This document shows positions 39,261 through 63,507 of a DNA stretch of 64,000 nt, piece by piece. The stretch is taken from positions 1,763 to 65,762 of the forward strand of contig CANQTY010000003.1 of NCBI GenBank assembly GCA_947626895.1, written 5' to 3'. The stretch's first letter is position 1; the number at the start of each line of letters is the position of its first letter. The position numbers were made by a program, and so were the translations under genes. Below the pieces are notes generated by a model. That model ran no database searches and had not been told where the DNA came from. It worked only from the letters and a program-made list of their open reading frames with translations. The DNA comes from an uncultured Bacilli bacterium (GTDB taxonomy: Bacteria; Bacillota_I; Bacilli_A; RFN20; CAG-449).

Positions 39261-39284
39261 ATTGTTATAGAAATTATTAAGAAA

Positions 39285-39331
39285 TATTTTAAAGTATACC
39301 AAAAAAGTAACTAAAAAGTAGACTTTAAAAG
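39285..39331. repeat. 44-bp direct repeat, copy 1 (TTTTAAAGTATACCaAAAAAGTAACTAAAAAGTAGACTTTAAAA)
   Basis: Copy 2 at 41305-41351 is about 95% identical. The two copies flank the Abi_2 gene region. Confidence 0.6.
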
Positions 39332-39846
39332 TTTTATATACTTGAAATTAAGCAAAATCGTCTAAAATTAGGGATATTTTAATAGTTCTAGAAATTTTAA
39401 ATAAATATTTTAAAGTCTACTGAAAAGAACTTTATACTATGATTATTACAACTTAATTATTTAAAAAAGTCTGAATTTAAGATATTTAAACAGTTGCAAA
39501 AACAATTAAAAATATTTTATCTTTTTATCTGGGGGTTAAATAAATAGATTTGGATGCTATTTTTAATAAAAAAAGTCTAAATTAGCTCTAAATAAAAAAA
39601 TCAAGGCGCGATCACATTTAGTAAAGCCCTTCTACAAAAAACAGAAAACTGTTTTTTGTTTTCAGCTTTAATTTAGCATAATAGGAAAAATGATGTCGAA
39701 TATAATGGTACTAGAATTTGTTTTTGCTCCTTGAATTGATATTTAGTTCATTCCTCATTAATTCCATGAAGAAAATTTATAACAACAAAAAGAGTCCCAG
39801 GGACTCTTAAGAAAAACACTCGGGGCGCCGTCGTAACTGCCCCCCT

Positions 39847-39870
39847 AAAAAAAACAGATATCTGTTTTTT
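39847..39870 (-). terminator. Palindromic (bidirectional) terminator after Abi_2 gene
   Basis: AAAAAACAGAT|ATCTGTTTTTT is a perfect palindrome with a T-run. Two more hairpins follow (GGGGC...GCCCC and AAGAGTCCC|AGGGACTCTT). Confidence 0.55.
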
Positions 39871-39914
39871 ACTTCCATCTTTAATTTAGCACAAGCAAAA
39901 ATCACTGTCAATAG

Positions 39915-40949
39915 TTAGCCCTCAAATTCTTTGAAATATTTTTTTATGATTTTCTCAAAATAGCAATAAGTCGATTTTAAAAGTCCGTTATGAATATAAT
40001 AGTTCCTGCAGAGGATAACTCTTCCAAAAAATAATTCATTGACAGCTTTTTTGATTTCTTGCTTTATATATTCATTTTCAACAAAGATATCAAATAAATA
40101 TAAAACGAAAGTAATTCTTCGGATTGTTGGGTTACTTAATTTATTATTTCTATTTTCTCTACCTATTCCACAATTACTTAAATAATCGATAATCATGGTA
40201 TCATTTAAATTACACGATTTTCTTTTTCTTAACGTGGATAATATATTCTTTCCATGAGCTATTTCATTCCTAAGCTTTTTCAATTCTTTTAGAAAATATA
40301 GATATTTTCTTTGTTCATCTAATTGATATTTAGAAGTAATGTAATCAAAGAATTTTATTTTTTCTCCAAAACTAAGAATTTGAAGAAGATCTTTGGCAGG
40401 AATATTTTGTATTTTTTGACTAATATCAACATTGTATTTATCTAAGATTTTACGTACATTTTCATCATCTTTCATTCTTTGAATACTTTGATGAATTTGC
40501 ATTTTATATTTTTTATCGTTTTCATTTTGAGTATTATGAATTTGATTTTGATCATAATAGTCCTCGTCCATAAAGCCATTGACGACATTAATCCCATCAC
40601 CTTCACCAATTTGTTCAATTTCATTTAGAATTAATGATACTAATCCATGCTCAATTTCAATAATCATTTCAAATAGTAGACTTTTTACCATACTATCAAT
40701 GACATACATATCTTTTAAATATGCAAAATCTAGTTGAGCAAATATTCCTTTTAAATCTCCACGAGGATAAACATTAAATACATTCATATATGAAGTAATA
40801 AAAGAGTAGTTTTTGTGCTTTTCAAGGCATAGTTTTGCCTCAGATTCGTTACAGAGCTCGAACCTTATTCCTTTTTCTTTAAGCAGTGCAATTTCTTCAT
40901 CAACTTTGGATGTAATTGGAATTGCATTTATGGTCATAGTTTTAGACAT
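39915..40949 (-). CDS. Abi_2 family (AbiD/AbiF-like) abortive-infection protein
   Basis: N-terminus ...IALLKEKGIRFELCNESEAKLCLEKHKNYSFITSY matches the Abi_2 N-terminal pattern. A later LRNEIAHG motif is present. Confidence 0.7.
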   Translation of the reverse strand: MSKTMTINAIPITSKVDEEIALLKEKGIRFELCNESEAKLCLEKHKNYSFITSYMNVFNVYPRGDLKGIFAQLDFAYLKDMYVIDSMVKSLLFEMIIEIEHGLVSLILNEIEQIGEGDGINVVNGFMDEDYYDQNQIHNTQNENDKKYKMQIHQSIQRMKDDENVRKILDKYNVDISQKIQNIPAKDLLQILSFGEKIKFFDYITSKYQLDEQRKYLYFLKELKKLRNEIAHGKNILSTLRKRKSCNLNDTMIIDYLSNCGIGRENRNNKLSNPTIRRITFVLYLFDIFVENEYIKQEIKKAVNELFFGRVILCRNYYIHNGLLKSTYCYFEKIIKKYFKEFEG

Positions 40950-42495: not shown

Positions 42496-44268
42496 TTAAG
42501 CTTCTTGTTTCGATTTATCTTTGATAAATATCGACTCTTCTTCTTTTGATTTTACTTCTCGTTTAATTAGTTTCTTTTCAATTAATTCAACTGTTCCTTC
42601 ATAGGGTAAATAGTAATCTTTCGATTCAAAACTTTCATCTTTTTCTAAACCATATTTCGTCATCACATCTTCAATTAAATCATTACTATAACGAATACGT
42701 TTATCATTTTTTAATCGATACATACAAGGTGTATCTACATAAGATGTATTATTTGATGCATCCTCGACGCCATATTTAGTATCTTTATAAGAATCAACTT
42801 CTAAAGCTAAATAAATACATAATGTATTACCACGGAAAGATAAGCGAATAACACTATTTCTTCCTACATTAAATGTTTCTCTTTTCCAAGACATTCTTGC
42901 TTTGACATTCTTATAAGAAAGAATCTTATTTTTCACTTCAGTATAGTAATTTTTAACTACATCATCTGCTTGAATTAATCTAGCTTGGAAACTCTTATTA
43001 TATCTTAATGTTCCTGCTTCTTGAGAATCAATCACTTCTGGAATAATGATGACTGGTTTTTCTTCTTTTACTTCCTCGACTACCTCAATTTCAGGTTGAG
43101 CTTCTTTTAAATCTTTAGGTTCCTCTAGAACATCAACTAGAAATTCTTTAACTTCTTCTTTTACAGGTTCTTTTTCTTCTTTAACCTTTTCTTTAGAGAA
43201 TATCGACTCTTCTTCTTTTGATTTTACTTCTCGTTTAATTAGTTTCTTTTCAATTAACTCTACTGTTCCTTCATATGGTAAATAGTAATCTTTTGATTCA
43301 AAACTTTCATCTTTTTCTAAACCATATTTCGTCAGCACATCTTCAATTAAATCATTACTATAACGAATACGTTTATCATTTTTTAGTCGATACATACAGG
43401 GTGTATCTACATAAGATGTATTATTTGATGCATCCTCGACGCCATATTTAGTATCTTTATAAGAATCAACTTCTAAAGCTAAATAAATACATAATGTATT
43501 GCCCCTAAAGGATAAACGAATAACACTATTTCTTCCTACATTAAATGTTTCTCTTTTCCAGGACATTCTTGCTTTTACATTCTTATAAGAAAGAATCTTA
43601 TTTTTCACTTCAGTATAATAATTTTTAACTACATCATCTGCTTGAATTAGTCTAGCTTGGAAACTCTTATTATATCTTAATGTTCCTGCTTCTTGTGAAT
43701 CGATCACTTCTGGAATAATAACTACTGGTTTTTCTTCTTTTATTTCCTCGACTACCTCAATTTCAGGTTGAGCTTCTTTTAAATCTTTGGGTTCCTTAAC
43801 TGGAGTTTCTTCAATAATAGGTTCTTCTATTGCATCATCTTTAACTATAATAACTTCTTCTTTTTCTTCTTTATGAGGATTTGGTTTAACATTAATCTTA
43901 TAGATTTCCTCGAAGGACTTATAGTGAACCTTAACAAAGTGTTCTCCTTCTTCTTCCATATTGGGTATTTCTATTTCAAAACCTTCTTTGATCTTTTCTT
44001 TTTTAGGCTTTAAATTATATTTACATTCCAAAACTAATCCTTCACTAGAAAAGACTTCATTATATTCAAAGACTTTCTTTACTTCTTCTGTATTAATCTT
44101 CATATATAATAGCTTTCTTTCTCTTTTCTTGTTCTTTTTAAAGATTAATATAAGAAGTAATACAATCATTAATAAAGAGATTAATACTTCAAGAGCATAT
44201 AACCAAAATAAGGCTGTATCAATCTCCCATGGAATTTCATATCCAAATACTTTAATTGTTGCTATCAT
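42496..44268 (-). CDS. Membrane protein (N-terminal TM, predicted cytoplasmic body) carrying two near-identical ~224-aa tandem repeats; translationally coupled to the giant gene
   Basis: TM helix LFWLYALEVLISLLMIVLLLILIF followed by KKNKKRERK. Two copies of ...LRYNKSFQARLIQADDVV...RGNTLCIYLALEVDSYKDTKYG...EEESIF. The start ATG overlaps the giant ORF stop as ATGA. Confidence 0.7.
   Translation of the reverse strand: MIATIKVFGYEIPWEIDTALFWLYALEVLISLLMIVLLLILIFKKNKKRERKLLYMKINTEEVKKVFEYNEVFSSEGLVLECKYNLKPKKEKIKEGFEIEIPNMEEEGEHFVKVHYKSFEEIYKINVKPNPHKEEKEEVIIVKDDAIEEPIIEETPVKEPKDLKEAQPEIEVVEEIKEEKPVVIIPEVIDSQEAGTLRYNKSFQARLIQADDVVKNYYTEVKNKILSYKNVKARMSWKRETFNVGRNSVIRLSFRGNTLCIYLALEVDSYKDTKYGVEDASNNTSYVDTPCMYRLKNDKRIRYSNDLIEDVLTKYGLEKDESFESKDYYLPYEGTVELIEKKLIKREVKSKEEESIFSKEKVKEEKEPVKEEVKEFLVDVLEEPKDLKEAQPEIEVVEEVKEEKPVIIIPEVIDSQEAGTLRYNKSFQARLIQADDVVKNYYTEVKNKILSYKNVKARMSWKRETFNVGRNSVIRLSFRGNTLCIYLALEVDSYKDTKYGVEDASNNTSYVDTPCMYRLKNDKRIRYSNDLIEDVMTKYGLEKDESFESKDYYLPYEGTVELIEKKLIKREVKSKEEESIFIKDKSKQEA
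42524..43867. repeat. Near-perfect 672-bp tandem duplication inside CDS 42496-44268
   Basis: ATCGACTCTTC... at 42530 recurs at 43202. About 96% DNA identity over about 670 bp. Confidence 0.8.
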
Positions 44269-47200
44269 TCTTCGTCTCCTCCTTCGTCCTTCCTTCTGAT
44301 GACCATAATTATTAAGATACCTAATAAGATAATTTGTAAACCTAATATTACAATGGGTATGCTTAAATCATTTCCTAAAGAAATACCCCTTCTTTGATAA
44401 TTACATACTTTACATGTATTATTTTCAAAATCATGTTCTTCATGTATTGTACATCCATCCACGACACAATAATGTTCATTTTCATTACTTTCATAACTCG
44501 CTTCATGTTCTTCTATATAGCCACATGTTGTACACAAATGAATATGTTTATTATCTTCTTTTAACCATTCTCCATAAGTATGATTGAGCTTTGTTTCACT
44601 TGCCATACCACATACTTCACAAAGTAAATAGTGTCCATTTTCATCATGACCATATATGGAAGTAAAGATATGTTCACCTTCATTAAATCTTGCTCCACAT
44701 ATATCACATACTTGATAATGTTTATTTCCATCAATGTGATAGATTAAATCTTTACTAGAGTGTGCTTCTTTTTCTTTACTTGCATAACCACATACTTCAC
44801 AGATCTTATAATGATGTGTACTATCATATTTATATGTATCTTTAAAGACATGGGCTTCTTTATCATATTCACCACATTTACTACATACGTGATAATGATA
44901 TGTATCATCAAATTCAAAGGTAATAGAATTATCATGTCCTTCAACAATCGTACAATCTTTTCCTACACATCTATGAGATGCATCATCTACTCTTTCCCAA
45001 TGAATTTCATGAGAATCAGTCGCTTCACATCCATCCACTAGACAAGTTCTTACATGGTGATTACCATCGACTTCCCATAGACTCCATTGATGAGATTCTT
45101 CTAGACCACATACTTCACAAATATGATGTTCATGATCTTTATTTTGCCAAATTGGTGCATGATGAATGATGTATCCACATTCACATTGCCCATAATGTTC
45201 ACCATTTACTGTTGCCCATATAAAGTGATGTTCATCACTAATACTTGTTTCATAATCACACACAGAACATTCTTGATGATGTCCTAATTCTTCATCATTT
45301 ACCCAAATTAGATCATGATTCTCGACAATATTACAACCTGAAACAGTACATTTATGTTTGGCTACCGCTACATCATTTTCCCATTGAGCAATATGTGTAT
45401 CATTATAACCACATGTTGTACAAGTTCTATAGTGTATTCCTGTTTCAGTATTGATTGTCCAACTAGTAAAGCTATCATGTTCAACGTGTGTACTTTCTTT
45501 TCCACATACTTCACATACTTGATAATGTCCATCTTTATCACTTGAATATACATCTTTTGGATAGCTATGTTTTTCAACATCATAATGTGCTCCACATATA
45601 CTACATTCATGATAATGATTTCCTTCTTTATCACTTAACCATGTGCTTGATCCATCATGTCCTTGTTTAATATTACAACCTACATAACTACATACATGAG
45701 TTAAGCCATCGCCAGAATCTACATAATTTTCTTTGTGGCTTTGTCTTGATGCTTCTGTATGACAAATTTCACATTCTCTAGTATGCTCATGGGGCGCTTC
45801 TGGATTTAAATCATCTTGCCATTCACCATAAGTATGCGTTTCATTACTGTATTTTTCTTTACAAGTATTACATTCCTTCCAGTGAGATGTGCCATCAGAA
45901 CTCCAAGTTACTTCATCATGGCTTGCTCTATCTTTTTCATATCCACATGAACATGACCACCAGTGCTCTTCATTATTGAAATGTTTCTCAAATGAATGTG
46001 CTGATTTATTGATAATATCCCCGCAGGTATCACAAATTTCATAATGATTCTCACTATCATAAGTAGATGTATAATTATGGGAGGTTCTACTACCAGCTTT
46101 TTCTGCACCACATAAATCACATACTTCCCAATGATCATGAGTATCATGATCATATTTACCATTAAATACATGCTCTTGATTTTCATTAAATCTAGTTCCA
46201 CAGAATTCACATACTTGATAATGATGCCCATCACCAGCATCTTTCCAACTTGAAGAACTATGAGATCCTATATCAATTCTATGCCCACATTTAACACATG
46301 CATGGAAGTGAATATTTTCCTCGACTTGCCAATCTAATTTATAACTATGCTCTTCTTTTGTAGATTCTATTGCTCTATTACATACATCACATACTTGATA
46401 ATGGAATTCTCCATATTCAATATATTTATTACTAAATTGATGCTCCCCTTTATTAAATTGAGCATGGCAATCATCACATACTTGATAATGATAATTTCCT
46501 GTTTCATCAAGATTATATCCTCGTGAAGAATGATGTGATGTTTCACTACCCGTTTCCTTATGTCCACATTCATCACATACTTTCCAATGTACTTCACCAT
46601 TCTCTTCATACTGATAGGTATTATAGTGATGCTCAGAACGATTGATTTCTTTACCACATGAACATACTTGATGATGTTCTTCACCAGAAATTACATATTC
46701 TGTTGCACTATGTGAACGTAATTGATCTTTATATTGACATACTGTACATTCTTTCCAATGTGTTTCATCATTATATTTCCAAGTATCATCATAAGTATGA
46801 GAACCTCTAGCAAATTCTATACCACATTCTTTACATACTTTATAATGTTGATTTTTTACTAAATCCATAATATAACCATCGGAAGTATGTTCTACTTCTT
46901 CTGTTTTATATCCACATATTGAACATTCTTGATAATGTTTCGTTTGATCTTCTGTTTCTTTCCATTCTAAACTATGTCCAGAAAGTTCTCCTTTATATCC
47001 ACATTCTTTACATACTTTCCAGTGATTTGTTCCATCTTTTGACCATTCTACACCTTCATAATTATGTGCTTTGCTACCATACGTAGCACCACATACTTCA
47101 CATATATGATAGTGATTTTCTTCCGTGGCATAGTAGTTATTTGTTAATCCTGATTCTCCTTTATCTGGAGTATGGTCGTTTCTTTCAAATTCTGCGCCAC

Positions 47201-50200
47201 ATTTATCACATTTTTTATAATGTTGATGAAGTTCATTATCTACTATCCATTCTGAAGATTCATGTTCACTACTTTCACCTTGTTTTTTCATTCCACATAC
47301 ATCACAAACTGGTGAATGTGTACCTTCTCCTGAATTACTTTCATAAATTCCTTTTTCATAAGTATGATTACCTTTATCAAATTCACCACATTTATAACAT
47401 TTATGATAATGATAACTGCCATCTGCACTATTAAACCATGTTGTTAAATCTGCACCTTCATGTGACGCAGTAATTGTACATTGATCACATTTATGCATAC
47501 CATCATCGACTGGTGACCAAGTGGTTTCTTCAATTGAATGTTCTTCATGGAACCCACATATAATACAATCTCTTTCATGCATTGTTCCATCAGCACTTAC
47601 TTTCCATTCGCCAATATGCGCTTCATGATGTGTTACATATCCACAATCTTCACATCTTTGAATATATCCGTCATCATCATGCCCTTCTGGAACAAAATTA
47701 TGTACTCCATAATTATGTTTATATCCACATTTTGTACATTCTTGCCAATGATAAGTTTTATCCGTACTAACCCATTTATCTAACTCATAAGAATGAGTCT
47801 CTCTTGAAGATTCAATAATAAATCCACATATACTACAAACTTGATAATGTTCACTTTCGTTAGATTGCCATCCAACTTTTGGAGTATGTGCTTCTTTATT
47901 AAAGACTGCGCCACAATCTTTACATACTAACCAGTGATTTGTGCCATCATCATAGTATTCTAGTGATCCGTCCCCTTTTGTTTTTGCTTCATGAGAAAGA
48001 ATACCTTTATCTTCTCCACCTTCATCTCTTGTAGATTTTCCACATACATCACAAACTAACCAGTGACCTTTGTCATTGCTTTCATAATGATTACGATGTT
48101 CTTCTGAAGGTGTTCTATATTCACAATCTTCACAAATTTGATAATGCTTATTATTTTCACCATCTTGATAATATGTATCTCCAAAATTATGATTTACACG
48201 TTCAGTTTCATAACCACAATCTTTACATTTATAATAATGACCTAAAGCTTTATCTGATTCTTTAGTATATGGAGTTTCAAAATTATGTCCCTCTGTTGGG
48301 GTTTCATATCCACATACAGAACATCTTTGATGATGTCCTAAAGAAGGATCCTTTTCTTGAATAAATGTATCGCCAAAATTATGTGCTCCATCATTAAATC
48401 TAGCACCACATACATCACAAACCTTATGATGTCCATCTGCACCATCAATAATATATGATTCAGAGCTATGTTCTTCATAGATATTGCAATCTTCATATTG
48501 ACATGTGTGAGTGTTCTTCCCTATATCTTCTTTAAATGAGGCAAAGTGAGAATCTACATAACCACATCCTACTTGAGTACATGTTCTTTCATGTGCTCCA
48601 GTACGTTCATTAATTGTATATCCTTCTGCATCATATGTATGCGCAGATTCATTAAATTTTTGTCCACATTTATCACATAATTGATAATGATTATGTTCAT
48701 CATGCTGCCAAGTCGATGAAGAATGAGATGTTTTTTCATTATCATGACCACATAAAGAACATTTTTGATGATGTCCTTCTAAGCCATCACTTATCCATGT
48801 ATCACCATAGGAATGCTCTCCATAGTTAAATCTAGCACCACAAATTTGACATACTTGATAATGTTGACCTTTTTCTACGTCATCTATCCAAGCACCGTCT
48901 ATACTAGAATGCTCTGTTACATCACTTCTATATCCACAATCAGCACACAAATGATAATGTGTAGTCTTATTATCATCATAATGCCATGGTGTTCCATCAC
49001 CATAATTATGATTTTTTCTAGTGCTTCCATCTACTAAACCACATACTTTACATAATTTATAATGTTCTTCTTCAGTTGTAATATAAGGTTGATCTTCAGA
49101 ATCATGTACACCTTCTTCAATTTTTTGTCCACATACACAAATCTTATAGTGATTTTTTCCATCACTAATCCATACATCTGAAGAGTGTTCTTGTTCTGCA
49201 ACACCTGTTTGTTTTGCACCACAAATATCACACACTAACCAGTGATGATTTTCATCATGATCGTATTTTGAATTAAATTGATGTTTTTGTTGACCATAAT
49301 GTTCTCCACATGTTGCACATTGATAATAATGTCCATTAGGATCATCTGTATGCCATCCATTATTTTCTGTTGTATCTTGTGTATGTGCTGCTCGATCAAA
49401 TTCGGTACCACAAATAGCACATTTATGATAATGTCCACTATCCTTATCATTATACCAACCATGGCCATCTAAAATATGATCTTCAACAAAATCACAACCA
49501 TCTTCCAAACATCTATGTTGATCTGTTGCTTTTTCCCACTTACTAGAATCAGTACCTTCATGTTGTTGTATAGCAGTACAACCCTCAACTATACAACTTC
49601 TTTGATGTCCTTTTTCACCAAATTTTTCCCATGCTCCCCATTTATGTTCTTCAGTTAATGTGCAATCTTGACATTGATGATTCTTTCCGTCATTAGAATC
49701 TTTCCAATTTCCAAGATGAGAATCTACATAACCACATCCTTCAACTTGACAAGTTCTTTCATGTAATCCTGTTTTTTCATTTAATGCCCAGCCTTTAAGT
49801 GCATCATTACTATATGTATGATCTTCTGGTTTGGTCTGTTTTCCACATACTTCACAAACTTGCCAGTGATGATTTTCATCATGTTCATATTTATAAGTAT
49901 GTGATTTACTATTATCATAATTTTCATTACAAAGAGAACAATGATGATAATGTTCCGTATCATTTGATTCCCAAGTATTAGATCCATTATGTCCTTCAGT
50001 AATCGTACATTGACTACACTTATGTGTACTCTCATTTATATAAGTCCAACCATCATCTCCAGGAATAGCGTGTGAATTTGTAGCGGTACAACCTTCTACT
50101 GTACATTCTTGTACATGTTGCCCTTCAACAACTTTCCATTCTCCCCATTTGTGTTCTTCTACAATATTACAACCCGATTCATCAGTACATTTATGTTTAC

Positions 50201-53200
50201 CACTACCTTCATCATTAGTCCATGATGGCGTATGTTCAATTCTATATCCACATTGCTCACATTGCCCAACATGCTTACCATCTATAGTGTTCCATTTGAA
50301 ATTATGTGTTTCACTTCTATTTGTTGTATAGTTACATCCCTCAACTGAACATTTTTGATAATGTCCACTTTCTTCTTCATTCACCCAAATCAAATCATGA
50401 TTTTGCTTAATATCACAATCTGAAACGGTACACTTATGTTGATTATTTTCAGAATCATTTTCCCATTTAGCAATATGTGCATCATTATAATTACATGTTG
50501 TACATGTTCTATAGTGTAATCCAGTTTCAGTATTTGTTGTCCAACTAGTAAAGCTACCATGCTCAACGTGTTCTGTTTCTTTTCCACATACTTCACATAC
50601 TTGCCAGTGTCCATCTTTATCACTTGAATACACATCTTTTTGATAGCTATGGTCTCCAACATCATAATTTGATTTACATACTGAACAATAGTGATAATGA
50701 TTGTCTTTATCATCCGTATGCCATCCATTATTTTCTGTTGTATCTTGTGTATGTCCCTCTTTTGCAAATTCGGCACCACAAATATCACATTTTTTATAAT
50801 GTTGATTATGTTCACCATCTACAAGCCATGTCTCTGAGTGATGCTCTTCAACAAAATCACAACCATCAATTGTACATTCATGCTTGCCATCATTTATTTT
50901 CCAATTACTTGTACCATCATGTTGTTGTGTTGCAGTACATCCCTCAACTGAACAACTTCTTTGATGTCCTTTTTCACCAAATTTTTCCCATGCTCCCCAT
51001 TTATGTTCTTCAGTTAATGTGCAATCTTGACATTGATGATTCTTTCCGTCATTAGAATCTTTCCAATTTCCAGGATGTGATGCTGTTCTATATTCACAAC
51101 CCTCTACTGTACAGGTTCCTACATGTTCACCATCTACAACTTGCCATTTAATGACATGCTTATTTTCATCTGTTTTATCCTTTGTTGCATCACAGAAAAC
51201 ACATTTATGATAATGATACTCATCATCATAACGCCATGTTTCTTCCCATACATGCGGGGATTCTAATTTACATGTTTCACAAATATGTTTTCCATTTTTA
51301 TTATCATTCCAAACTGGATCATGTCCTTCATCTTGATATCCACATTCACATGTCCCTATATGTCTTCCATTTACTTCTGCATAGGTTAAATTATGATTTT
51401 CAGTTCTTCCACTTCGATGTCCACATACTGAACATTCTTCATGGTGATTTTCATTATCTTTATCATCCACCCAATGATATGAATGTCCCTCTTGTAATAC
51501 ACAATCTTTACATTGATGATGCTCATCATCTCCCTCTAATTCTCCCAAATTTGGTAGATGTGATTCACTATATCCACATGTTGAACAGGTCCTTTCATGT
51601 TTTTCAGTTTCTACATTATAATTCCAACCTTCATTTTCTGTTCCTTTATATGAATGTTCTTCATGTGTACTTTCTTTTCCACATACTTCACAGACTTGCC
51701 AATGTTCTTCTTTATTACTTGAATATACATCTTTTTTATAGCTATGTGCTGCTTCATCTAAACGTTCATGACATACACTACATTCATGATAGTGATTTGT
51801 GCCATCATCTTTCCAATCACTACTAGGTTCATGCGCTCCTTTAATTGTACATTCTGAGACATCACAATGGTGTCCTTGTTCTAATCCTGTTCCATCAGAT
51901 ACCCAATGAGGATTATGTCCTTCCGTTTGTTGATAACTACAATCTTCACAAGTTCCTACATGTTTTCCATCTATTTCATGCCAGATTGTGAATTTATGAG
52001 ATGCATGTGTTTTTTCTTCATATTCACATATAGAACATTTTTGGTGATGTCCAGTTTCGTCACTAACCCATATGTCAAATGTATGTTCTTCAGGTTCCTT
52101 TCCAATACATAAAGTACACCAGTGTCTATCTGCATCACTTCCCCAACTAGCGAAATGACTATCTACATAACCACATTTAGTACATGTTCTAGAGTGATTT
52201 TCCCATGCAACACCAGTATAATCATGTACTTGCATTTTTGCTATCGTGGACTGACAAACAGTACAGAACTTATAATGTCCATCTGCACTTTGTAAGTATG
52301 ATTCGCTATGTCCATCTACATTAATTTTTTCACCACATGCATCACATATTTTCCAGTGATTAGTTTCATCATGTTCGTAAGAACGTGTTGAACTATGTCC
52401 TTCATGAGCTCCTTCTGCTCCACAAAGATCACAGATTCTCCAGTGTTCTTCACCTTTATATCCATATTTATTTAATTCATAAGTATGTTCTCCAACATTA
52501 AATTGTTGTTTACATGTATCACAAACTTGATGATGGTTGTCACCTTCAACATACCAACCTGTATCATCAGGAGTATGAAGTACATGTTCGCTTTCTTGAC
52601 CACATTCACATACTTGCCAGTGTGCTAAATTATTAAATTGATACTCACCTTCTTTAAAGGTATGCTTAGTAAATTCAAATTCCGCATTACAATAATCACA
52701 AACTTTATGATGTCCTACTCCGTGTTCCACATCATCTGATGAATTTGTAACTAAATGACTAGAAGTATGGACTCCATTTATATCACATTCAGCATATTGA
52801 CATGTATGTGTACCTTTACCTACATCTTCTTTAAATGAACCAAAGTGAGAATCTACATAACCACATCCTTGTTCAGTACATGTTCTCTTATGTATTCCTC
52901 CATCATCAGTGAATTTTCCATCACCAAAATTATGTGATATTTTCTCACTATCTGCATGACACACACTACATTCTTGATAATGCCCTTCAGACCCTGCGGA
53001 TATCCAAGATGAACCCCAATTATGTTCAGAATTTTCAAATTTGACTCCACATACTTTACATATTTTATAATGTTCACTATCACTAATATGCCATTGTCCT
53101 TCACCTAAATCAGAAATATGATCCTCGTGTAAAGATTCATAACCACATGTACAAGAACGATAATGTTGATTTCCAACAACTGTATACCCGTTATGTTCAC

Positions 53201-56200
53201 CAGTAAATGTATGTCTAGCTTGATCTTTTATAAAGCCACAAATAGAACATTGATGATAGTGATATGTGTCATTATAATACCAGTTATTAGGATTGCCTTC
53301 ACGACTAAAATCGTGTGCCTCTGCAGTACTAGTTACAACACCACAATATTTACACACTTGATAATGATATGTTCCATCTTGGGTATATTTTTTCTCAAAA
53401 AAATCATGTGGAGTTATGTCAAAACGTTGACCACAATCATCACAAACCTTATAGTGACCAACATCTTTACCACCATCAATATATGTACCAGAACTATGAT
53501 GAGCAGTTTTATGATCGCCATCTTTATTTTCATAACCACATTCGTCACAAATTAACCAGTGAGAATCAATATCATAACCATAATGATCTGTGTAGCTTGA
53601 TGTATGCTTGTCATATTCTGTGCCACAAATAGTACATTGATGATAATGCACTAATTTACCATCTTCTTCCTTTTGTAACCATGTATCATATCCATCATGC
53701 CCTTGTTTTATATTACAATTTGGATCAGTACAAACATGAGATTTAGGATCTTGTTCAGATGGTTCAAAATGCTCTGTATGACTTTGTTTTGCGTCATCTA
53801 GTTTACATATCACACATTCTCTTGTGTGAGTGTGTGTTTCTGATGGATTATAATCATCTACCCATTCTCCATAAGTATGTGTTGCTTCGTTTAAATGAGT
53901 AGCATGACATGTAGCACAATTTTGCCAATGCTTTGAATTATTTTCATTTCCATTTGTTTCCCATGACAAATTATCATGTGCAACTTTTTCACCAGAAAGT
54001 CCACAACCATCACAAATCAACCAGTGATTTGTTTCGTCATAATTATATTGCCCTTTAGAATAATCATGTTTTCCATTTTCAAATTTTGCTCCACAAACAT
54101 CACATAATTTATAATGATTTGTTCCATCACTTAACCATGTATCTGTTGTACTACTATGTTCTTCTTCATCTAAATGCGCATGACATACATTACATTCATG
54201 ATAATGATTTTTTCCATCATCTTTCCAATCACTACTAGGCTCATGATTTCCTTCAATCGTACAATTTGGAACATTACAATGGTGACTTTGTCCTAATCCT
54301 GTTCCATCAGATACCCAATCTGGAGTATGTCCTTCCGTTTGTTGATAATTACAAATTTTACAAGTACCAACATGTTTTCCATCTATTTCATGCCAAATTG
54401 TAAATTCATGATCTTCAGGAGCTCCAGTTGTGTATGTACATCCCTCAACAGAACATTTTTGATAATGTCCGTCTTCATTACTAACCCATACTAATGTATG
54501 TTTATCAGTTGCATCACATATATCACATTTATGATTTTCGTTATCTCCTGCATCTACCCAATGTGGATCATGACTATCTACATATCCACAATCATTACAT
54601 GTTCTAGAATGATTTTTCCATGCTACATCAGTATAATCATGTTCTACTCTTCCGTATTCATTTTTACATGTAGCACAAATATGATAATGATCCTTATCAT
54701 CGCTATGCCAACCATTATTTTCTTCTATATCTGGAGTGTGTTCCCCTATATCATATTCGCCACATTTAGTACATAAATGATAGTGTTTTAGTGTTCCATC
54801 ATAATCTTTCTCTAACCAAGTATCATAGCCATCATGACCTTCGGTAATAGTACAAGTGCCATTTGCACCATTACATTTATGTGTACTATTATCTACTTTT
54901 TCCCAACCTACTCCGTTTATTTCATGGCTTTCATATTCTTCACAAACAAGACAAGTTCTTTCGTGGCGTAACTTATCTTCACTTATATGCCATTCACCAA
55001 TATGTTCTTTGTGCTCAACAGTATATCCACAGTCTTCACATGTTTGAATGTAGGTACCATTTTCTTGTTTTTCCCATGATGTAAAATTATGCGGTCCCAT
55101 ATTGTGGAACTTATATCCACAATCTATGCATTCTTGCCAGTGATTTGTTTCATCGGCAGTCCATCCTGCATTTTTAGCTGTGCCTTTATTTTCAGTGCCA
55201 TAATTATGAGGGGATACACCAAATGTAACATGACATACTGAGCAAATATACCAGTGATTAGTATCATCTCCAACATCTAACGTTTCTTCAGTTTTTGTAT
55301 GGCTTTCAACAAATCCACATCCTGGATAGTTACATTTATGATGTTCTCCATCACCAGAATCAACTAGTTTCCATGGATCTCCAATGGTATGTTCAGCATT
55401 AAATCCACATACTGAACATGTCGCAGTATGCTTATTTCCTTCATATGTCCAATCAATAACATGATTGGCAACATCCACTTTTTCTCCACATACTGAACAT
55501 TTATAATAATGTCCTGTTTCATCTGCATAATATCCATTATTATAAGATCCTTTTTGATCTAAGTGATCGTGATCCTCTACTATAGAACAGTCATCTTGCC
55601 CATCCTCTGATCCAGCACATTTATGCTGCGAACTATTAAATTTTTGAAAATTTGGTGTATGGCTTTGTCTATAATGTCCACTACCACCTGCTTGTATACA
55701 TGTACATTCTCTATAATGAATACCACTATCTATATCGTTATGCCATTCAGAATATGAATGAGAATCAAAAAAGCCACAACCATCTACATCACATTGATGT
55801 CGTGTTTCATCAAGATATTTAAATCCTCCTTCTGCGTGTCTACTTACAGCACCACATGTACATGCACCACGATGAGACTTATTACCATCATCTACTATTA
55901 CTTCCCATCCAGAAAAACTATGAGAAGTAATATTAAGATTTGCACCACAAATAGTACATACATTATAGTGATGTTCAGTATCATAAGACCATTCAGTTTC
56001 ATCATAATCATGATTTGCAGCAGGAATTCCACAACCCAACTCAGTGCACTGATGTTTTTCACTATTATCTATAGCATCCCATATGGGTGCATGTTCTTTA
56101 TGATAAGTACAACTACCACATGTTCCTTGATGATCACCACTAGATAAAGTATTCCATGCCAAAGAATGCGTTTCTTTAGTTGACTCTTGTTTTTCATGAC

Positions 56201-59200
56201 ATGATGAACATAAGTGATAATGATATTCAATATCACCCTCTACATATTCAAAATTTTCACCCCAATGATGTGCTTCAAATAAATTACAATCATCTACTGC
56301 ACATTGATGATATTGTTCATTATATGTTTCGTATTTTTTCGTAGATGCAAATGGCTCATGAGATTTATCATAATATCCACAGCCGTTATTATCACATATA
56401 TGGCGATGCTGTCCCTCAACTAATTCCCATTTATTATTATTAAATATATGAGGAGTAGTTTCAGTTTTATATTGACAATTAGAGTTTTGACATTGTTGAT
56501 AATGCCCAGTCGTTCCATCACTTATCCATGTATCACCATATGTATGATTCTCTTTTGAATTTTCATCTATATAGGAACAATCTAAACAATATCTCCAATG
56601 TTGAGTTGGATCATCTGTTTTATATTGATATTGATGTAATCCATTAGAGCTCTTTGCTCCACATTCTGGATTTGTGCATTTTTTATAATGTTCATCAGTG
56701 GTTGTTGTCCAATTGTCTTCCCAAGTATGTGCTTGGTTAATAGCCTCATAATTACATGTTCCACATCTTTGATAATGATTATCATCATCAAACGACCAAT
56801 TAAAAGAGTGATTTTGGTAATTCCAATTACCTTTACAAATATCACATATTTGATAATGCTGATTATCATATGTTGGCTCTGGACTATCATAATGCCATGA
56901 TGAATCAACACTAGATTCATGCTTCATATGTGTAGAATCATATCCACATTCTGTACATACTTGCCAATGCTCATTTTCATTATGAGAATACGTATTCGGT
57001 TCATATGTATGCCCTAGTGATTTCTCAAATGTGGCACCACAATCTTTACATATTTTATAATGATAGCCACCGCTTCCCTCAGTCGGATACGAATAATAAC
57101 CATTGTGATCATCTTTATTTGGAGTATGGGCTTCAGTACCGTAATGATAGGCACATCCATCACAAATATAATAATGCGTGAGACCTCCCTCTTCATAAGA
57201 TAATTCCTTTTCAGCATTGCTATGCTGATTTTTTATATCGCATGTTACATAAGTACATTGATGTTGCTCTTCATTTAAATAGGACCAGCCAGAATTATTT
57301 GTTTTTTTATCTGGGTTATGTATTGTGCTTTCCTCTACTGCACCGCATGAGCACTTATGTTCATGATTTCCGTTTTCTCCATTCACTATCCAATCAACAT
57401 ATGAATGAACATGCGCACTTTTATAGCCACATTTAGTACAAGTGCCATCTGAACCCCAAATATGATTTTCGATGTATGAACTTGTTTTATTTTCGTATCC
57501 ACATGTATCACATATGGCCCAGTGTTGTGCTTCATCATACCCAAATCCTTCTTTGTTGTTAGCGCTCCACTTATTATATGTGTGCGAAGCTTGAGAACTT
57601 TGTCGATTGCAATATTTACATTTTCCTCTATGATTAATTTCAGTTCTTGTGTACTCAAATACGTGTTTTTCTTCAAACACATTACCACCACAAATATCAC
57701 ATACTACTGTGTGATTTTCTTCTGAAGTATGCTCACCTGTTTTGTGCTGTAATGTAGTATGCTTTTCTCTATAAGTTCCATTACAAATCGCACAAGTAGT
57801 ACGATGCTCTTTATCGTCGACTCTATCATATTTTGTAGGTGTTGAGTGATTTTCAACAATATCACAAAATTTGCAACGATGATGTTGCGTATCGCAATTC
57901 TCTTCTTTTACACTACCATTATATATTGGTTCCCATGATGCTGTAGTATTATCAACTGAATGCGATTCCTCTAATGTACACTCCACATCACCTTCTACAT
58001 AACCACAATCTTTCCTATGTGTTGTTCCATCTACATACCACCCGTTTTCTGTTATTCCAAGATGATTTTTTTCCCAACCATAATCTTTAGCATGAGTTTT
58101 TGACTCATCTATATATCCACATGTAGTACATTTGTATATATGATTATTTCCTTCTAAAAACCATTCAAAGACATGTTCTTCAGGTGAACTATTAATACGA
58201 GCGGAACAATATTGACATTGTTGATAGTGTCCCGACGAATCATCATACGTATAATCAGAACCAGGTGTATGCTCTGAAGATACCCATCCACAAACCGAAC
58301 AACTATGAGTTCCTAAACCAGTATCTACAAACTTACTATTGTTAGTACAATGGTTTTCATAATCACAATCTAAACATTTTTGATAATGATCGTTTTCATC
58401 TCCACTCCATTCATCCCCAAAATTATGCCCTTGTGCACCATATTCATCTCCGCAAAATTCACAAACATACCAATGATAATCAGCGTTAGTATCACTAGAT
58501 GAATCAGCGTGACTCCATACATCCGAAGATGATGTATGCGGAATTGATAAAGTACAGGTACCATCTGCGCCAGTACATTTATGCCCTTCGTTTTCGCTTA
58601 TATTATCCTTATCAAGTGATTCACTTCCAGATGAACTAGGTTCATGTGTATCGTGGTAATGACAAACGATACATTCTCTATAATGATTACCATATGAATC
58701 ACTTTGCCATGTCCCATCAAATTGGTGTTCAACAGCTCCATATTTATCTCCACATACATCACAAACTAACCAATGCTTGTCTTTATCACTTTCGTTTCCA
58801 TTTCCACTTGATGAATCATAGTATTGCCAATTATGTTCTGAATCACTAGTGCTATGAGCATTTTGAATACCACATTCATTATTGCCATCGCCTTTACATT
58901 GATGACCATTATTACCTTCAATTGAGTCACTATCTAAAGAATTCCACATATCGGAACCACTGACAGAATGTGTTTGGCGACAATCACAAGCTTTACATTT
59001 TCTTTCATGCATTGTTCCATCAGCAATTTCTTCCCATTTATCATAATCGTGTGCAGTTGCACTATATTTAGCGCCACAATCATCACAAACCTTATAATGA
59101 TAATCACTATTTGATTCCCATTTATCATCTGTTGAGTGATGTGTAATTGTCGTAATATTACAATCTCCCACGTCGCAACTATGTCCATCGTCATTTGTTT

Positions 59201-59924
59201 GAAAATCAAATGCATCCTTTGGCATCCAATTAGGTTCATGAAAATCGATTATAGCATAACAATCATTACAACTTTTAATGTGTAGCACACTTTGTGTAGA
59301 TCCATCACTAACTACATTACCACTGGCATCGAGAGCTTCCCAAAGAGAACTACTATGAGAACAAGGAAAATAAGAGTTCACGTTGGCTTTTGTCACTTTG
59401 CATTCCCAGCAATACTCCCCTTCTCCTCCTTCATAGGAAAAATTATGTTCGCCATAGGTTTCACTTACTCCCATATGACAATCTTCACATTCTTTCCAAT
59501 GGTGCGTTTGATTATATTTCCATCCAGTATCAGCATCAGAATTATACTTGTGAGGTGAACCATTAGGACAAAAATTAGAAAATACAATTCCATCTTTTAT
59601 TTCAAGACCTATATCACTAGATAAGCTCGTTAATTCTATCCCATTATCATTATTTATATTATCTATATTATATTCTTGATTTTCTTGTGATGATTTTTGT
59701 TCTAATCTTATTTGTTCTGCATGTACATGATCATGTTCTTCTTCATGTTCATGATCATGCTCCTCTTCTTCTGTATGTTGATGAGTTAATTCATGTTTTT
59801 GTTGTACTACATCACTTGCAGGGTATTGGGGTGCAATGAAAAAGAATAATAAAGCAAGTAATACATGCGAAGTACATGTAAGTATCTTTTTAATCAATTT
59901 TTTGAACTCAAAAAAACTTTTCAT
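44265..59924 (-). CDS. Giant (5219 aa) secreted, C-terminally membrane-anchored protein made of ~150 tandem Cys/His mini-modules (H-[YW]-x2-C-x2-C-[GH]-x6-9-H-x-[FYW]) with a His/Glu/Asp-rich N-terminal tract
   Basis: A 15.66-kb uninterrupted ORF in an AT-rich genome. N-terminal signal peptide KKLIKKILTCTSHVLLALLFFFIAPQYPAS. HDHEHEEEHDHVH tract. C-terminal TM LSIPIVILGLQIILLGILIIMVI plus RRKDEGGDEE tail. Composition is dominated by H, C, D, G, Y, W, E, T, N. Confidence 0.85.
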   Translation of the reverse strand: MKSFFEFKKLIKKILTCTSHVLLALLFFFIAPQYPASDVVQQKHELTHQHTEEEEHDHEHEEEHDHVHAEQIRLEQKSSQENQEYNIDNINNDNGIELTSLSSDIGLEIKDGIVFSNFCPNGSPHKYNSDADTGWKYNQTHHWKECEDCHMGVSETYGEHNFSYEGGEGEYCWECKVTKANVNSYFPCSHSSSLWEALDASGNVVSDGSTQSVLHIKSCNDCYAIIDFHEPNWMPKDAFDFQTNDDGHSCDVGDCNITTITHHSTDDKWESNSDYHYKVCDDCGAKYSATAHDYDKWEEIADGTMHERKCKACDCRQTHSVSGSDMWNSLDSDSIEGNNGHQCKGDGNNECGIQNAHSTSDSEHNWQYYDSSSGNGNESDKDKHWLVCDVCGDKYGAVEHQFDGTWQSDSYGNHYRECIVCHYHDTHEPSSSGSESLDKDNISENEGHKCTGADGTCTLSIPHTSSSDVWSHADSSSDTNADYHWYVCEFCGDEYGAQGHNFGDEWSGDENDHYQKCLDCDYENHCTNNSKFVDTGLGTHSCSVCGWVSSEHTPGSDYTYDDSSGHYQQCQYCSARINSSPEEHVFEWFLEGNNHIYKCTTCGYIDESKTHAKDYGWEKNHLGITENGWYVDGTTHRKDCGYVEGDVECTLEESHSVDNTTASWEPIYNGSVKEENCDTQHHRCKFCDIVENHSTPTKYDRVDDKEHRTTCAICNGTYREKHTTLQHKTGEHTSEENHTVVCDICGGNVFEEKHVFEYTRTEINHRGKCKYCNRQSSQASHTYNKWSANNKEGFGYDEAQHWAICDTCGYENKTSSYIENHIWGSDGTCTKCGYKSAHVHSYVDWIVNGENGNHEHKCSCGAVEESTIHNPDKKTNNSGWSYLNEEQHQCTYVTCDIKNQHSNAEKELSYEEGGLTHYYICDGCAYHYGTEAHTPNKDDHNGYYSYPTEGSGGYHYKICKDCGATFEKSLGHTYEPNTYSHNENEHWQVCTECGYDSTHMKHESSVDSSWHYDSPEPTYDNQHYQICDICKGNWNYQNHSFNWSFDDDNHYQRCGTCNYEAINQAHTWEDNWTTTTDEHYKKCTNPECGAKSSNGLHQYQYKTDDPTQHWRYCLDCSYIDENSKENHTYGDTWISDGTTGHYQQCQNSNCQYKTETTPHIFNNNKWELVEGQHRHICDNNGCGYYDKSHEPFASTKKYETYNEQYHQCAVDDCNLFEAHHWGENFEYVEGDIEYHYHLCSSCHEKQESTKETHSLAWNTLSSGDHQGTCGSCTYHKEHAPIWDAIDNSEKHQCTELGCGIPAANHDYDETEWSYDTEHHYNVCTICGANLNITSHSFSGWEVIVDDGNKSHRGACTCGAVSRHAEGGFKYLDETRHQCDVDGCGFFDSHSYSEWHNDIDSGIHYRECTCIQAGGSGHYRQSHTPNFQKFNSSQHKCAGSEDGQDDCSIVEDHDHLDQKGSYNNGYYADETGHYYKCSVCGEKVDVANHVIDWTYEGNKHTATCSVCGFNAEHTIGDPWKLVDSGDGEHHKCNYPGCGFVESHTKTEETLDVGDDTNHWYICSVCHVTFGVSPHNYGTENKGTAKNAGWTADETNHWQECIDCGYKFHNMGPHNFTSWEKQENGTYIQTCEDCGYTVEHKEHIGEWHISEDKLRHERTCLVCEEYESHEINGVGWEKVDNSTHKCNGANGTCTITEGHDGYDTWLEKDYDGTLKHYHLCTKCGEYDIGEHTPDIEENNGWHSDDKDHYHICATCKNEYGRVEHDYTDVAWKNHSRTCNDCGYVDSHDPHWVDAGDNENHKCDICDATDKHTLVWVSNEDGHYQKCSVEGCTYTTGAPEDHEFTIWHEIDGKHVGTCKICNYQQTEGHTPDWVSDGTGLGQSHHCNVPNCTIEGNHEPSSDWKDDGKNHYHECNVCHAHLDEEEHSSTTDTWLSDGTNHYKLCDVCGAKFENGKHDYSKGQYNYDETNHWLICDGCGLSGEKVAHDNLSWETNGNENNSKHWQNCATCHATHLNEATHTYGEWVDDYNPSETHTHTRECVICKLDDAKQSHTEHFEPSEQDPKSHVCTDPNCNIKQGHDGYDTWLQKEEDGKLVHYHQCTICGTEYDKHTSSYTDHYGYDIDSHWLICDECGYENKDGDHKTAHHSSGTYIDGGKDVGHYKVCDDCGQRFDITPHDFFEKKYTQDGTYHYQVCKYCGVVTSTAEAHDFSREGNPNNWYYNDTYHYHQCSICGFIKDQARHTFTGEHNGYTVVGNQHYRSCTCGYESLHEDHISDLGEGQWHISDSEHYKICKVCGVKFENSEHNWGSSWISAGSEGHYQECSVCHADSEKISHNFGDGKFTDDGGIHKRTCTEQGCGYVDSHFGSFKEDVGKGTHTCQYAECDINGVHTSSHLVTNSSDDVEHGVGHHKVCDYCNAEFEFTKHTFKEGEYQFNNLAHWQVCECGQESEHVLHTPDDTGWYVEGDNHHQVCDTCKQQFNVGEHTYELNKYGYKGEEHWRICDLCGAEGAHEGHSSTRSYEHDETNHWKICDACGEKINVDGHSESYLQSADGHYKFCTVCQSTIAKMQVHDYTGVAWENHSRTCTKCGYVDSHFASWGSDADRHWCTLCIGKEPEEHTFDIWVSDETGHHQKCSICEYEEKTHASHKFTIWHEIDGKHVGTCEDCSYQQTEGHNPHWVSDGTGLEQGHHCDVSECTIKGAHEPSSDWKDDGTNHYHECSVCHERLDEAAHSYKKDVYSSNKEEHWQVCEVCGKESTHEEHSYKGTENEGWNYNVETEKHERTCSTCGYSESHLPNLGELEGDDEHHQCKDCVLQEGHSYHWVDDKDNENHHEECSVCGHRSGRTENHNLTYAEVNGRHIGTCECGYQDEGHDPVWNDNKNGKHICETCKLESPHVWEETWRYDDEYHYHKCVFCDATKDKTDENKHVIKWQVVDGEHVGTCTVEGCEYRTASHPGNWKDSNDGKNHQCQDCTLTEEHKWGAWEKFGEKGHQRSCSVEGCTATQQHDGTSNWKINDGKHECTIDGCDFVEEHHSETWLVDGEHNQHYKKCDICGAEFAKEGHTQDTTENNGWHTDDKDNHYHYCSVCKSNYDVGDHSYQKDVYSSDKDGHWQVCEVCGKETEHVEHGSFTSWTTNTETGLHYRTCTTCNYNDAHIAKWENDSENNQHKCTVSDCDIKQNHDLIWVNEEESGHYQKCSVEGCNYTTNRSETHNFKWNTIDGKHVGQCEQCGYRIEHTPSWTNDEGSGKHKCTDESGCNIVEEHKWGEWKVVEGQHVQECTVEGCTATNSHAIPGDDGWTYINESTHKCSQCTITEGHNGSNTWESNDTEHYHHCSLCNENYDNSKSHTYKYEHDENHHWQVCEVCGKQTKPEDHTYSNDALKGWALNEKTGLHERTCQVEGCGYVDSHLGNWKDSNDGKNHQCQDCTLTEEHKWGAWEKFGEKGHQRSCIVEGCTAIQQHEGTDSSKWEKATDQHRCLEDGCDFVEDHILDGHGWYNDKDSGHYHKCAICGTEFDRAAHTQDTTENNGWHTDDPNGHYYQCATCGEHYGQQKHQFNSKYDHDENHHWLVCDICGAKQTGVAEQEHSSDVWISDGKNHYKICVCGQKIEEGVHDSEDQPYITTEEEHYKLCKVCGLVDGSTRKNHNYGDGTPWHYDDNKTTHYHLCADCGYRSDVTEHSSIDGAWIDDVEKGQHYQVCQICGARFNYGEHSYGDTWISDGLEGHHQKCSLCGHDNEKTSHSSSTWQHDEHNHYQLCDKCGQKFNESAHTYDAEGYTINERTGAHERTCTQVGCGYVDSHFASFKEDIGKNTHTCQYEDCNIYEEHSSESYIIDGADGHHKVCDVCGARFNDGAHNFGDTFIQEKDPSLGHHQRCSVCGYETPTEGHNFETPYTKESDKALGHYYKCKDCGYETERVNHNFGDTYYQDGENNKHYQICEDCEYRTPSEEHRNHYESNDKGHWLVCDVCGKSTRDEGGEDKGILSHEAKTKGDGSLEYYDDGTNHWLVCKDCGAVFNKEAHTPKVGWQSNESEHYQVCSICGFIIESSRETHSYELDKWVSTDKTYHWQECTKCGYKHNYGVHNFVPEGHDDDGYIQRCEDCGYVTHHEAHIGEWKVSADGTMHERDCIICGFHEEHSIEETTWSPVDDGMHKCDQCTITASHEGADLTTWFNSADGSYHYHKCYKCGEFDKGNHTYEKGIYESNSGEGTHSPVCDVCGMKKQGESSEHESSEWIVDNELHQHYKKCDKCGAEFERNDHTPDKGESGLTNNYYATEENHYHICEVCGATYGSKAHNYEGVEWSKDGTNHWKVCKECGYKGELSGHSLEWKETEDQTKHYQECSICGYKTEEVEHTSDGYIMDLVKNQHYKVCKECGIEFARGSHTYDDTWKYNDETHWKECTVCQYKDQLRSHSATEYVISGEEHHQVCSCGKEINRSEHHYNTYQYEENGEVHWKVCDECGHKETGSETSHHSSRGYNLDETGNYHYQVCDDCHAQFNKGEHQFSNKYIEYGEFHYQVCDVCNRAIESTKEEHSYKLDWQVEENIHFHACVKCGHRIDIGSHSSSSWKDAGDGHHYQVCEFCGTRFNENQEHVFNGKYDHDTHDHWEVCDLCGAEKAGSRTSHNYTSTYDSENHYEICDTCGDIINKSAHSFEKHFNNEEHWWSCSCGYEKDRASHDEVTWSSDGTSHWKECNTCKEKYSNETHTYGEWQDDLNPEAPHEHTRECEICHTEASRQSHKENYVDSGDGLTHVCSYVGCNIKQGHDGSSTWLSDKEGNHYHECSICGAHYDVEKHSYPKDVYSSDKDGHYQVCEVCGKESTHVEHDSFTSWTINTETGIHYRTCTTCGYNDTHIAQWENDVAVAKHKCTVSGCNIVENHDLIWVNDEELGHHQECSVCDYETSISDEHHFIWATVNGEHYGQCECGYIIHHAPIWQNKDHEHHICEVCGLEESHQWSLWEVDGNHHVRTCLVDGCEATDSHEIHWERVDDASHRCVGKDCTIVEGHDNSITFEFDDTYHYHVCSKCGEYDKEAHVFKDTYKYDSTHHYKICEVCGYASKEKEAHSSKDLIYHIDGNKHYQVCDICGARFNEGEHIFTSIYGHDENGHYLLCEVCGMASETKLNHTYGEWLKEDNKHIHLCTTCGYIEEHEASYESNENEHYCVVDGCTIHEEHDFENNTCKVCNYQRRGISLGNDLSIPIVILGLQIILLGILIIMVIRRKDEGGDEE

Positions 59925-59952
59925 GCAAAACCCTTATTCGGTAAAACAATAG

Positions 59953-59962
59953 CCCCCCCCCC
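59953..59962 (-). promoter_or_regulatory. Homopolymeric G10 (C10 on plus strand) tract in the putative promoter spacer of the giant gene
   Basis: Minus-strand read: TTGACT-tttccaacGGGGGGGGGG-cTATTGT...AAGGG-6nt-ATG. The tract lies between a -35-like TTGACT (59971-59976) and a -10-like element. Confidence 0.5.
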
Positions 59963-59991
59963 GTTGGAAAAGTCAATAAATTGATGTGAAA

Positions 59992-60009
59992 TTTGTGCTC
60001 GAGCACAAA
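59992..60009. promoter_or_regulatory. Perfect 18-bp palindrome TTTGTGCTCGAGCACAAA upstream of giant-gene promoter
   Basis: 9+9 perfect inverted repeat, about 15 bp upstream of the -35. No flanking T-run, so it looks like an operator rather than a terminator. Confidence 0.4.
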
Positions 60010-60152
60010 TGCAATTTGACTACATCTATGCATTTTGACCTCATTTTGTCTATTTTTTATCAAATAAAAGGTTTTCTTAAAACTCACCCCATATAGTTAA
60101 AATCCTAGGAGAGTATTCTTTCCTAGGACTCAAACTTGATTTATGCCTTCAA

Positions 60153-63193: not shown

Positions 63194-63507
63194 AACTAAT
63201 TTTATTTTTATGTTATAAAATGGCTAATTTTAGGCATTTTATAATGCTTTTCTTTATTATATTTTTTAAAAATATTTTTAAAAATTAAGTTAAGCTAGAT
63301 CTTTTTATTTAATCAATTTATTAAATCTTTTTGTTTTACAAAAAAATTTTTTCAAATTTTTTGACAAATTTTCTTTTGAATTCTCTATCTATATATATGA
63401 GAGACCTATAAAGTAAGAACTTATGAATAAGTTCATGGTTACTTCTTTATAGGTTTTTTGTTTTAATCATTTATTTTGCAGTGTAGCAAGGAAAGGAGCA
63501 AATAGCC

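Follow-up and report, generated by a model that had tools for sequence, protein, structure and literature searches.

Introduction

Mononucleotide runs of eight or more G or C residues are intrinsically hypermutable in Neisseria, Haemophilus, Campylobacter and Mycoplasma. In the low-GC genomes of Campylobacter jejuni and Helicobacter, the rare G/C runs of at least eight residues mark phase-variable genes for surface structures, and these tracts are mostly intragenic and act by frameshift. In Bordetella pertussis, the fim2 and fim3 promoters carry a poly-C tract and also depend on BvgA bound further upstream, and the length of the tract determines how far the activator site is from the -10 box. 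Promoters of the sigma-70/SigA type work best with spacers of 17 ± 1 bp.

The closest described systems are those in which a repeat separates the -35 box from the -10 box of a surface-protein gene. In porA of Neisseria meningitidis, a poly-G tract in this position is linked to high expression with 11 G, 2-fold lower expression with 10 G and 13-fold lower expression with 9 G (PMC3639595). Phase variation by a poly-C tract in the promoter spacer is described for the opc gene of the same species in a reference listed in PMC5084427. In Mollicutes, insertions and deletions of nucleotides in the spacers of vlp, maa2 and vmm switch the transcription of variable surface proteins ON and OFF (PMC2268961).

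The locus presented here lies in a window of 64 kb (64,000 nucleotides, the whole stretch of DNA that was analysed) with a G+C content of ~31%. We estimate, at roughly even odds (about 0.5), that a G10 homopolymer upstream of a giant gene in this window serves as a promoter-spacer slippage switch for a giant surface-protein operon. Like porA and opc, whose tracts measure ~9-13 nt, the locus has a G/C homopolymer between the -35-like and -10-like hexamers of a gene for a predicted surface protein. It differs from them in its host, which is Gram-positive-derived uncultured gut Bacilli, and in its cargo, a 5,219-aa repeat protein with a C-terminal anchor instead of the porin encoded by porA. In addition, the G10 tract as assembled predicts OFF or low expression, and switching is here a prediction.

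With the Mollicutes switches, our locus would share the repeat in the -35/-10 spacer, and their hosts are phylogenetically the nearest, as the closest relatives of the FeoB protein encoded beside the tract are labelled Mollicutes, Anaeroplasmataceae and Coprobacillus CAG:826-like. The repeat itself is of another kind: poly-A in vlp of Mycoplasma hyorhinis and TA in vmm of M. mycoides (maa2 belongs to M. arthritidis), whereas it consists of G's here. Furthermore, the Mollicutes cargo comprises small lipoproteins of multigene families, in contrast to one orphan giant non-lipoprotein in this case, for which the 64-kb window holds no paralogous family. The succession of a palindrome and the G10 tract is reminiscent of fim2/fim3 and suggests a combination of stochastic and conditional control, but a -35 box is recognizable here and the regulator of the palindrome is putative. 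Unlike the poly-G loci of Campylobacter and Helicobacter, the tract is non-coding and unable to fuse or break the giant ORF.

A rare G10 homopolymer upstream of a giant gene

The tract and the gene that it may control are located as follows:

59953-59962, minus strand: G10 homopolymer GGGGGGGGGG (C10 on the plus strand), candidate slippage-prone element
44265-59924, minus strand: 5,219-aa ORF, predicted regulated gene, with signal peptide, ~170 modules and C-terminal TM anchor

A preliminary description of this DNA gave the coordinates of the tract exactly, but its distance of 35-45 nt from the start codon was too long, since the A of the ATG (59924) is found 29-38 nt downstream of the ten G's. 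G10 is the sole G/C run of seven or more residues in the window, and for runs of at least ten, ~0.001 would be expected in the window compared to the one observed. Within the loci of relatives, of which those with less than 36% G+C were used for this count, not a single G/C run of seven or more occurs in 363,485 bases. The tract is thereby a repeat of at least ~8 G/C residues that is over-represented relative to composition, which is one mark of the SSR class. One tract of this type in 64 kb gives no hint of a larger set of contingency loci spread over the genome.

The ATG of the giant ORF, 28 nt past the tract, is preceded by an in-frame stop with no other start codon in between. G10 is therefore non-coding with regard to the giant ORF and not an intragenic repeat, as the translational SSR class would have it. 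A 59-aa ORF does span the tract, in a different frame from the giant ORF, and a translational (frameshift) switch was rejected on the basis of hand translations: with G9 as well as with G11, these run into TAA and TGA stops before the giant ORF, so that no fusion of the two ORFs results and the tract is unable to act by frameshift.

An obvious concern is that the tract or its exact length could be an artefact, produced by poly-G calls of two-colour Illumina chemistry or by homopolymer miscalling in a long-read metagenome-assembled genome (MAG). The source is indeed a MAG contig (NCBI, 73,226 nt), the length of homopolymers in such consensus sequences is prone to error, and the tract is known from a single assembly. 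The run is, however, internal to the contig and flanked by a coherent gene start that comprises terminator, hexamers, Shine-Dalgarno sequence, ATG and signal peptide, and with the k-mer sizes in normal use, ten G's are too few for unrelated contigs to be joined through them. As an artefact would also leave the flanking hexamers and the position of the tract unexplained, we regard this explanation as highly improbable.

Geometry of the candidate promoter

Upstream of the giant gene, the following elements were recognized:

59991-60010, no strand assigned: perfect 20-bp palindrome ATTTGTGCTCGAGCACAAAT, candidate transcription-factor site, 14 nt upstream of the -35
59971-59976, minus strand: -35-like hexamer TTGACT, 5/6 match to TTGACA
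59952-59970, minus strand: promoter spacer tttccaac-G10-c of 19 nt, which G8 would shorten to 17 nt and G9 to 18 nt
59946-59951, minus strand: -10-like hexamer TATTGT, 4/6 match with A2 and T6 present, ending 21 nt before the ATG
59931-59935, minus strand: Shine-Dalgarno-like AAGGG, 6 nt before the ATG

On the minus strand, these elements occur in the order

ATTTGTGCTCGAGCACAAAT-ttcacatcaattta-TTGACT-tttccaac-GGGGGGGGGG-c-TATTGT-tttaccgaat-AAGGG-ttttgc-ATG

The sequence thus bears out the placement of the tract between TTGACT and TATTGT that had been proposed before, and of the 18-19 nt suggested for the spacer, the upper value is exact and the lower is not. The two hexamers are recognized by consensus match only, with a predicted transcription start site (TSS) at ~59938, and the -10-like hexamer has no TG extension.

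When spacers of 16-19 nt are allowed, a single hexamer pair of the 228-nt intergenic region reaches a score of at least 9/12, namely TTGACT-19-TATTGT. A standard promoter scanner gave no report in this 228-nt gap; as it accepts only spacers of 16-18 nt, it misses the pair at the G10 length. In the other genes of the window, the -10 box is located 13-44 nt before the start codon, compared to 21 nt in the giant gene, so that a leader of ~14 nt appears to be normal for this genome. Around ~1.2% of random points in the window fall within suitable -35/-10 flanks (-35-like hexamer with at least 5/6 and -10-like hexamer with at least 4/6 matches including A2 and T6, residual distance plus a tract of 7-11 nt adding up to 17 nt), and such hexamer pairs are found about once per 1.3 kb in this AT-rich DNA. 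An accidental origin of the flanking hexamers is therefore unlikely, though not wildly so. We infer that TTGACT/TATTGT is the active promoter of the giant gene. In its assembled form, the 19-nt spacer looks non-functional, and a tract unrelated to a promoter would look alike.

The upstream feo operon and the leader RNA

Two features upstream of the promoter bear on the origin of the transcript:

63117-60153, minus strand: feoA-feoA-feoB-feoB-associated operon, upstream of the giant gene and on the same strand
60101-60130, minus strand: terminator-like hairpin at the 3' end of the feo operon, with a 10-bp stem and a 10-nt loop, followed by TTTT

In a related strain (Logan accession DRR848763), the stem of this hairpin is kept and three bases of the loop are different. 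This combination of conserved stem and divergent loop suggests that the hairpin is probably the terminator of the feo operon. It would keep transcription that starts further upstream from reaching the giant gene, which argues that the giant gene needs a promoter of its own. The promoter of the feo operon, TTGACA-17-TAGAAT, comes close to the consensus and is placed 29 nt ahead of the feoA start codon. A perfect 22-bp A/T palindrome, TTTTTAAAAATATTTTTAAAAA, occupies 63263-63284, ~100 nt upstream of that promoter, and could be a regulator site or a mere effect of the AT-rich composition.

Tract length could also vary and act by another route, either in the 5' UTR of a transcript that starts further upstream, for instance close to the palindrome, or reads through from feo (via mRNA structure, stability or ribosome access), or by changing the helical phasing between a regulator and RNA polymerase. 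A scanner predicted G:U-rich hairpins over the G run in which CUUUUCC is paired with the G's, the feo terminator has a tail of just four U's, and the distance from the palindrome to the -10 box likewise shifts with tract length. Against a role in the 5' UTR, the leader RNA is no more structured than its shuffled versions (z = 0.11) and matches no Rfam family, the hairpins found by the scanner rest on G:U pairs, and the intergenic region contains no other upstream promoter-like pair. We thus consider these modes of action rather improbable. For the same reasons of folding and lacking Rfam match, an RNA element or leader structure was rejected as an explanation, and an intrinsic terminator on the G run was rejected as well, because its stems depend on G:U pairs, its tail is interrupted and its fold does not exceed that of the shuffles.

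The 20-bp palindrome

The palindrome is separated from TTGACT by the 14 nt ttcacatcaattta. It had been described as a perfect palindrome of 18 bp and as a possible repressor site; it is indeed perfect, but extends over 20 bp that enclose the 18-mer. In Markov-shuffled windows, 0.26 perfect palindromes of at least 20 bp are expected per window, and 0.03 if at least eight of the bases are G or C. The palindrome bears a possible resemblance to LacI/CcpA-type operators, with a central CG and a TGTG...CACA pattern.

Further copies with up to three mismatches are missing from the window apart from one chance-level match, the palindrome has no occurrence in 86 related loci, and no HTH regulator is encoded among the neighbouring genes in the 64 kb of the genome that are covered. 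A recurrent operator for a LacI- or CRP-like dimeric regulator was therefore rejected, given that other copies and a nearby cognate regulator are absent from the visible 64 kb, a stretch that makes for a weak test. The same observations (uniqueness in the window, absence from the 86 loci, no regulator gene nearby) lend no support to the possible repressor site of the preliminary description. The centre of the palindrome lies ~61 nt upstream of the predicted TSS, a position that is compatible with a putative activator at least as well as with a repressor.

Strains and relatives

The sequence of DRR848763 is 97-98% identical to ours over the feo operon and the terminator hairpin and becomes abruptly unrelated from ~60083, that is, ~14 nt past the hairpin and ~120 nt upstream of G10 (contig region 3231-3269); the contig ends 40 nt beyond this breakpoint. 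Palindrome, G10 promoter and gene start are consequently situated inside a strain-variable segment:

59925-60083, minus strand: strain-variable segment that holds the palindrome and the G10 promoter, unrelated in DRR848763

These findings are of relevance for a further explanation, according to which G10 is fixed and does not switch. The tract would then be a rigid G:C block, a protein-binding element or a leftover of recombination, and the gene would be expressed constitutively or under control of the palindrome, from this or another promoter. The abrupt swap of the promoter segment in a strain that is otherwise 97-98% identical speaks in favour of this explanation, as the tract may have come in by recombination. 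Moreover, one tract length is known, from one contig, and the assembled 19-nt spacer is a non-working geometry. Opposed to this, G/C runs of eight or more are generally known to be hypermutable, which would make a stably fixed G10 hard to maintain. That the lineage otherwise avoids such runs altogether argues that G10 is kept by selection, and the chance that a tract lies exactly between two hexamers is ~1%. Weighing both sides, we think that a fixed tract is unlikely, and that a variable promoter spacer is the preferred reading.

The same species is represented in several ENA and Logan assemblies with 98-100% identity and 3-5x coverage. Samples that contain it include the ENA assemblies ERZ27249252, ERZ27249462, ERZ27060228 and ERZ27249467 and the runs ERR10663701, DRR848763 and SRR29273041. 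The respective contigs measure about 1.4-3.3 kb and end before the promoter. One of them, from Logan accession ERR10663701, carries the 3' end (58 codons) of the giant gene, which is hence present in at least one other sample. Look-ups with exact proteins (those of the FeoB-associated ORF, of FeoB and FeoA, and of the spurious ORF across the tract) yielded nothing or contigs of 1.9-3.3 kb lacking the promoter, rather than a second promoter copy. JGI metagenome scans gave no matches, neither with the DNA flanks of the tract and a variable gap nor, at the protein level, with the N-terminal 600 aa of the giant protein.

For synteny, 80 FeoB-anchored genome loci were compared, within a total of 86 related loci. 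The closest FeoB among these (84% identity) belongs to an uncultured Bacilli MAG from rabbit gut, and the next relatives are labelled Bacilli, Mollicutes, Anaeroplasmataceae, Erysipelotrichaceae and Coprobacillus sp. CAG:826, which points to a host among Mollicutes-like uncultured gut Bacilli and, going by these labels, possibly to an order of the RF39/RFN20 type. In the closest MAG, similarity stops at the end of the feo operon, and a gene for a protein related to the giant one is missing from all 86 loci.

The giant protein and its neighbour

The giant gene has a length of 15.7 kb. Its product begins with an N-terminal signal peptide and a His/Glu-rich stretch, continues with ~170 repeat modules of ~30 aa (H-x3-C-x2-C-x7-H) and ends with a C-terminal TM anchor and a basic tail. 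It has no match in Pfam or NCBIfam, forms a singleton 90% cluster in a collection of 15 billion proteins and is found on one NCBI contig of 73,226 nt. Usable homologues number four, all distant (24-27% identity), and upstream of the one whose upstream region was examined, the tract is absent, which is uninformative at this distance. Distant relatives of the repeat module carry SLH, dockerin, cohesin, Big_2, LRR_5, Flg_new and DUF1542 domains.

Signal peptide, TM anchor and the surface domains of the relatives together lead us to predict that the giant protein is a surface protein. Its predicted exposure agrees with the SSR class, in which products are surface-exposed or interact with host or phage. 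The His/Cys modules are probably metal-binding, and they are modelled as beta-hairpins, a confidently predicted fold that has no solved counterpart. Directly behind the signal peptide and in frame, imperfect repeats of 24 nt and 6 nt (CATGTT-type; 59715-59768, minus strand) encode the His/Glu/Asp-rich sequence HTEEEEHDHEHEEEHDHVH, which could also vary in length.

A second gene follows the giant gene directly:

42496-44268, minus strand: 590-aa gene, overlapping the stop codon of the giant gene by ATGA

This gene is probably co-transcribed with the giant gene and would in that case share its promoter. It contains a 672-nt tandem duplication with copies of 94% identity (42502-42801 and 43174-43473). 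The ERR10663701 strain, which is 99% identical, has one repeat copy and a 366-aa product, so that the copy number of the repeat differs between strains.

A candidate promoter-spacer switch

According to the proposed mechanism, G10 would be the variable part of the spacer in a sigma-70/SigA-type promoter that drives an operon of the giant gene and its overlapping neighbour of 590 aa. During replication, single G's would be gained or lost through slipped-strand mispairing, and spacer length would equal 9 plus tract length. Given the optimum of 17 ± 1 bp, G8 (17 bp) is predicted to be optimal and ON, G9 (18 bp) and also G7 would give reduced or intermediate expression, and the assembled consensus G10 (19 bp), like longer tracts, would be low or OFF. 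In this manner, a costly, exposed surface protein could be toggled stochastically and reversibly within the population, with a dimeric regulator probably acting on the 20-bp palindrome to impose conditional control above the stochastic switch. We infer, in line with this scheme, a variable tract length, expression that tracks the spacer and binding of a regulator to the palindrome.

The promoter-spacer switch that the preliminary description put forward agrees with all of the exceptional tract, the sole hexamer pair, the normal distance between -10 box and ATG, the non-coding position and the surface-protein cargo, and may stand as a candidate on these grounds. For a gene of 15.7 kb with a predicted surface-exposed product, such a switch is biologically sensible. 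By its layout, the locus is a plausible candidate member of the porA/opc and vlp/vmm class, and not an established phase-variable locus.

Tentatively, and at odds that we would place below even, the locus might represent the first contingency locus in uncultured, genome-reduced, Mollicutes-like gut Bacilli of the RF39/RFN20 type, in which a poly-G switch and a palindrome-bound regulator toggle an orphan surface fibre beside the feo operon and inside a strain-variable segment. The papers searched provided no link between RF39-type Bacilli and SSR phase variation. If true, never-cultured commensals would vary their surface stochastically, in the manner of pathogens, to counter host immunity or phage. 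Confirmation would extend slippage phase variation, which is documented mainly in cultured pathogens, to a commensal lineage accessible through metagenomes only, and would mark out the giant His/Cys-repeat protein as a structure of the cell surface on which selection by antibody, phage or metal availability fluctuates. Since the mechanism is textbook knowledge, this would add a case and no new concept; the unusual parts of the candidate switch are its host lineage and its cargo protein.

Other features of the window

Between parB and the giant gene, the window contains three paralogous AAA_14/DUF4143 ATPase genes, a Schlafen/AlbA_2 and HATPase_c_4 gene and an Abi_2 gene, which looks like a defence or mobile-element-related set:

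15553-16767 (minus strand), 30626-31936 (plus strand), 35444-36772 (plus strand), 36882-38198 (minus strand) and 39915-40949 (minus strand): AAA_14/DUF4143, Schlafen/AlbA_2 and Abi_2 gene set

Two neighbouring large ORFs of 566 and 589 aa (17446-19146 and 19159-20928, both on the minus strand) have no Pfam match. A perfect 22-bp palindrome, AAAAAACAGATATCTGTTTTTT, comes directly after the Abi_2 gene at 39849-39870 and is probably the terminator of this gene; it is adjoined by a C6 run (39840-39845), the only other C run of at least six residues in the window. The 1.7-kb stretch at 38199-39914 has a G+C content of ~25% and holds no ORF of 100 aa or more, and a 33-nt sequence is repeated in tandem three times within it (38699-38795).
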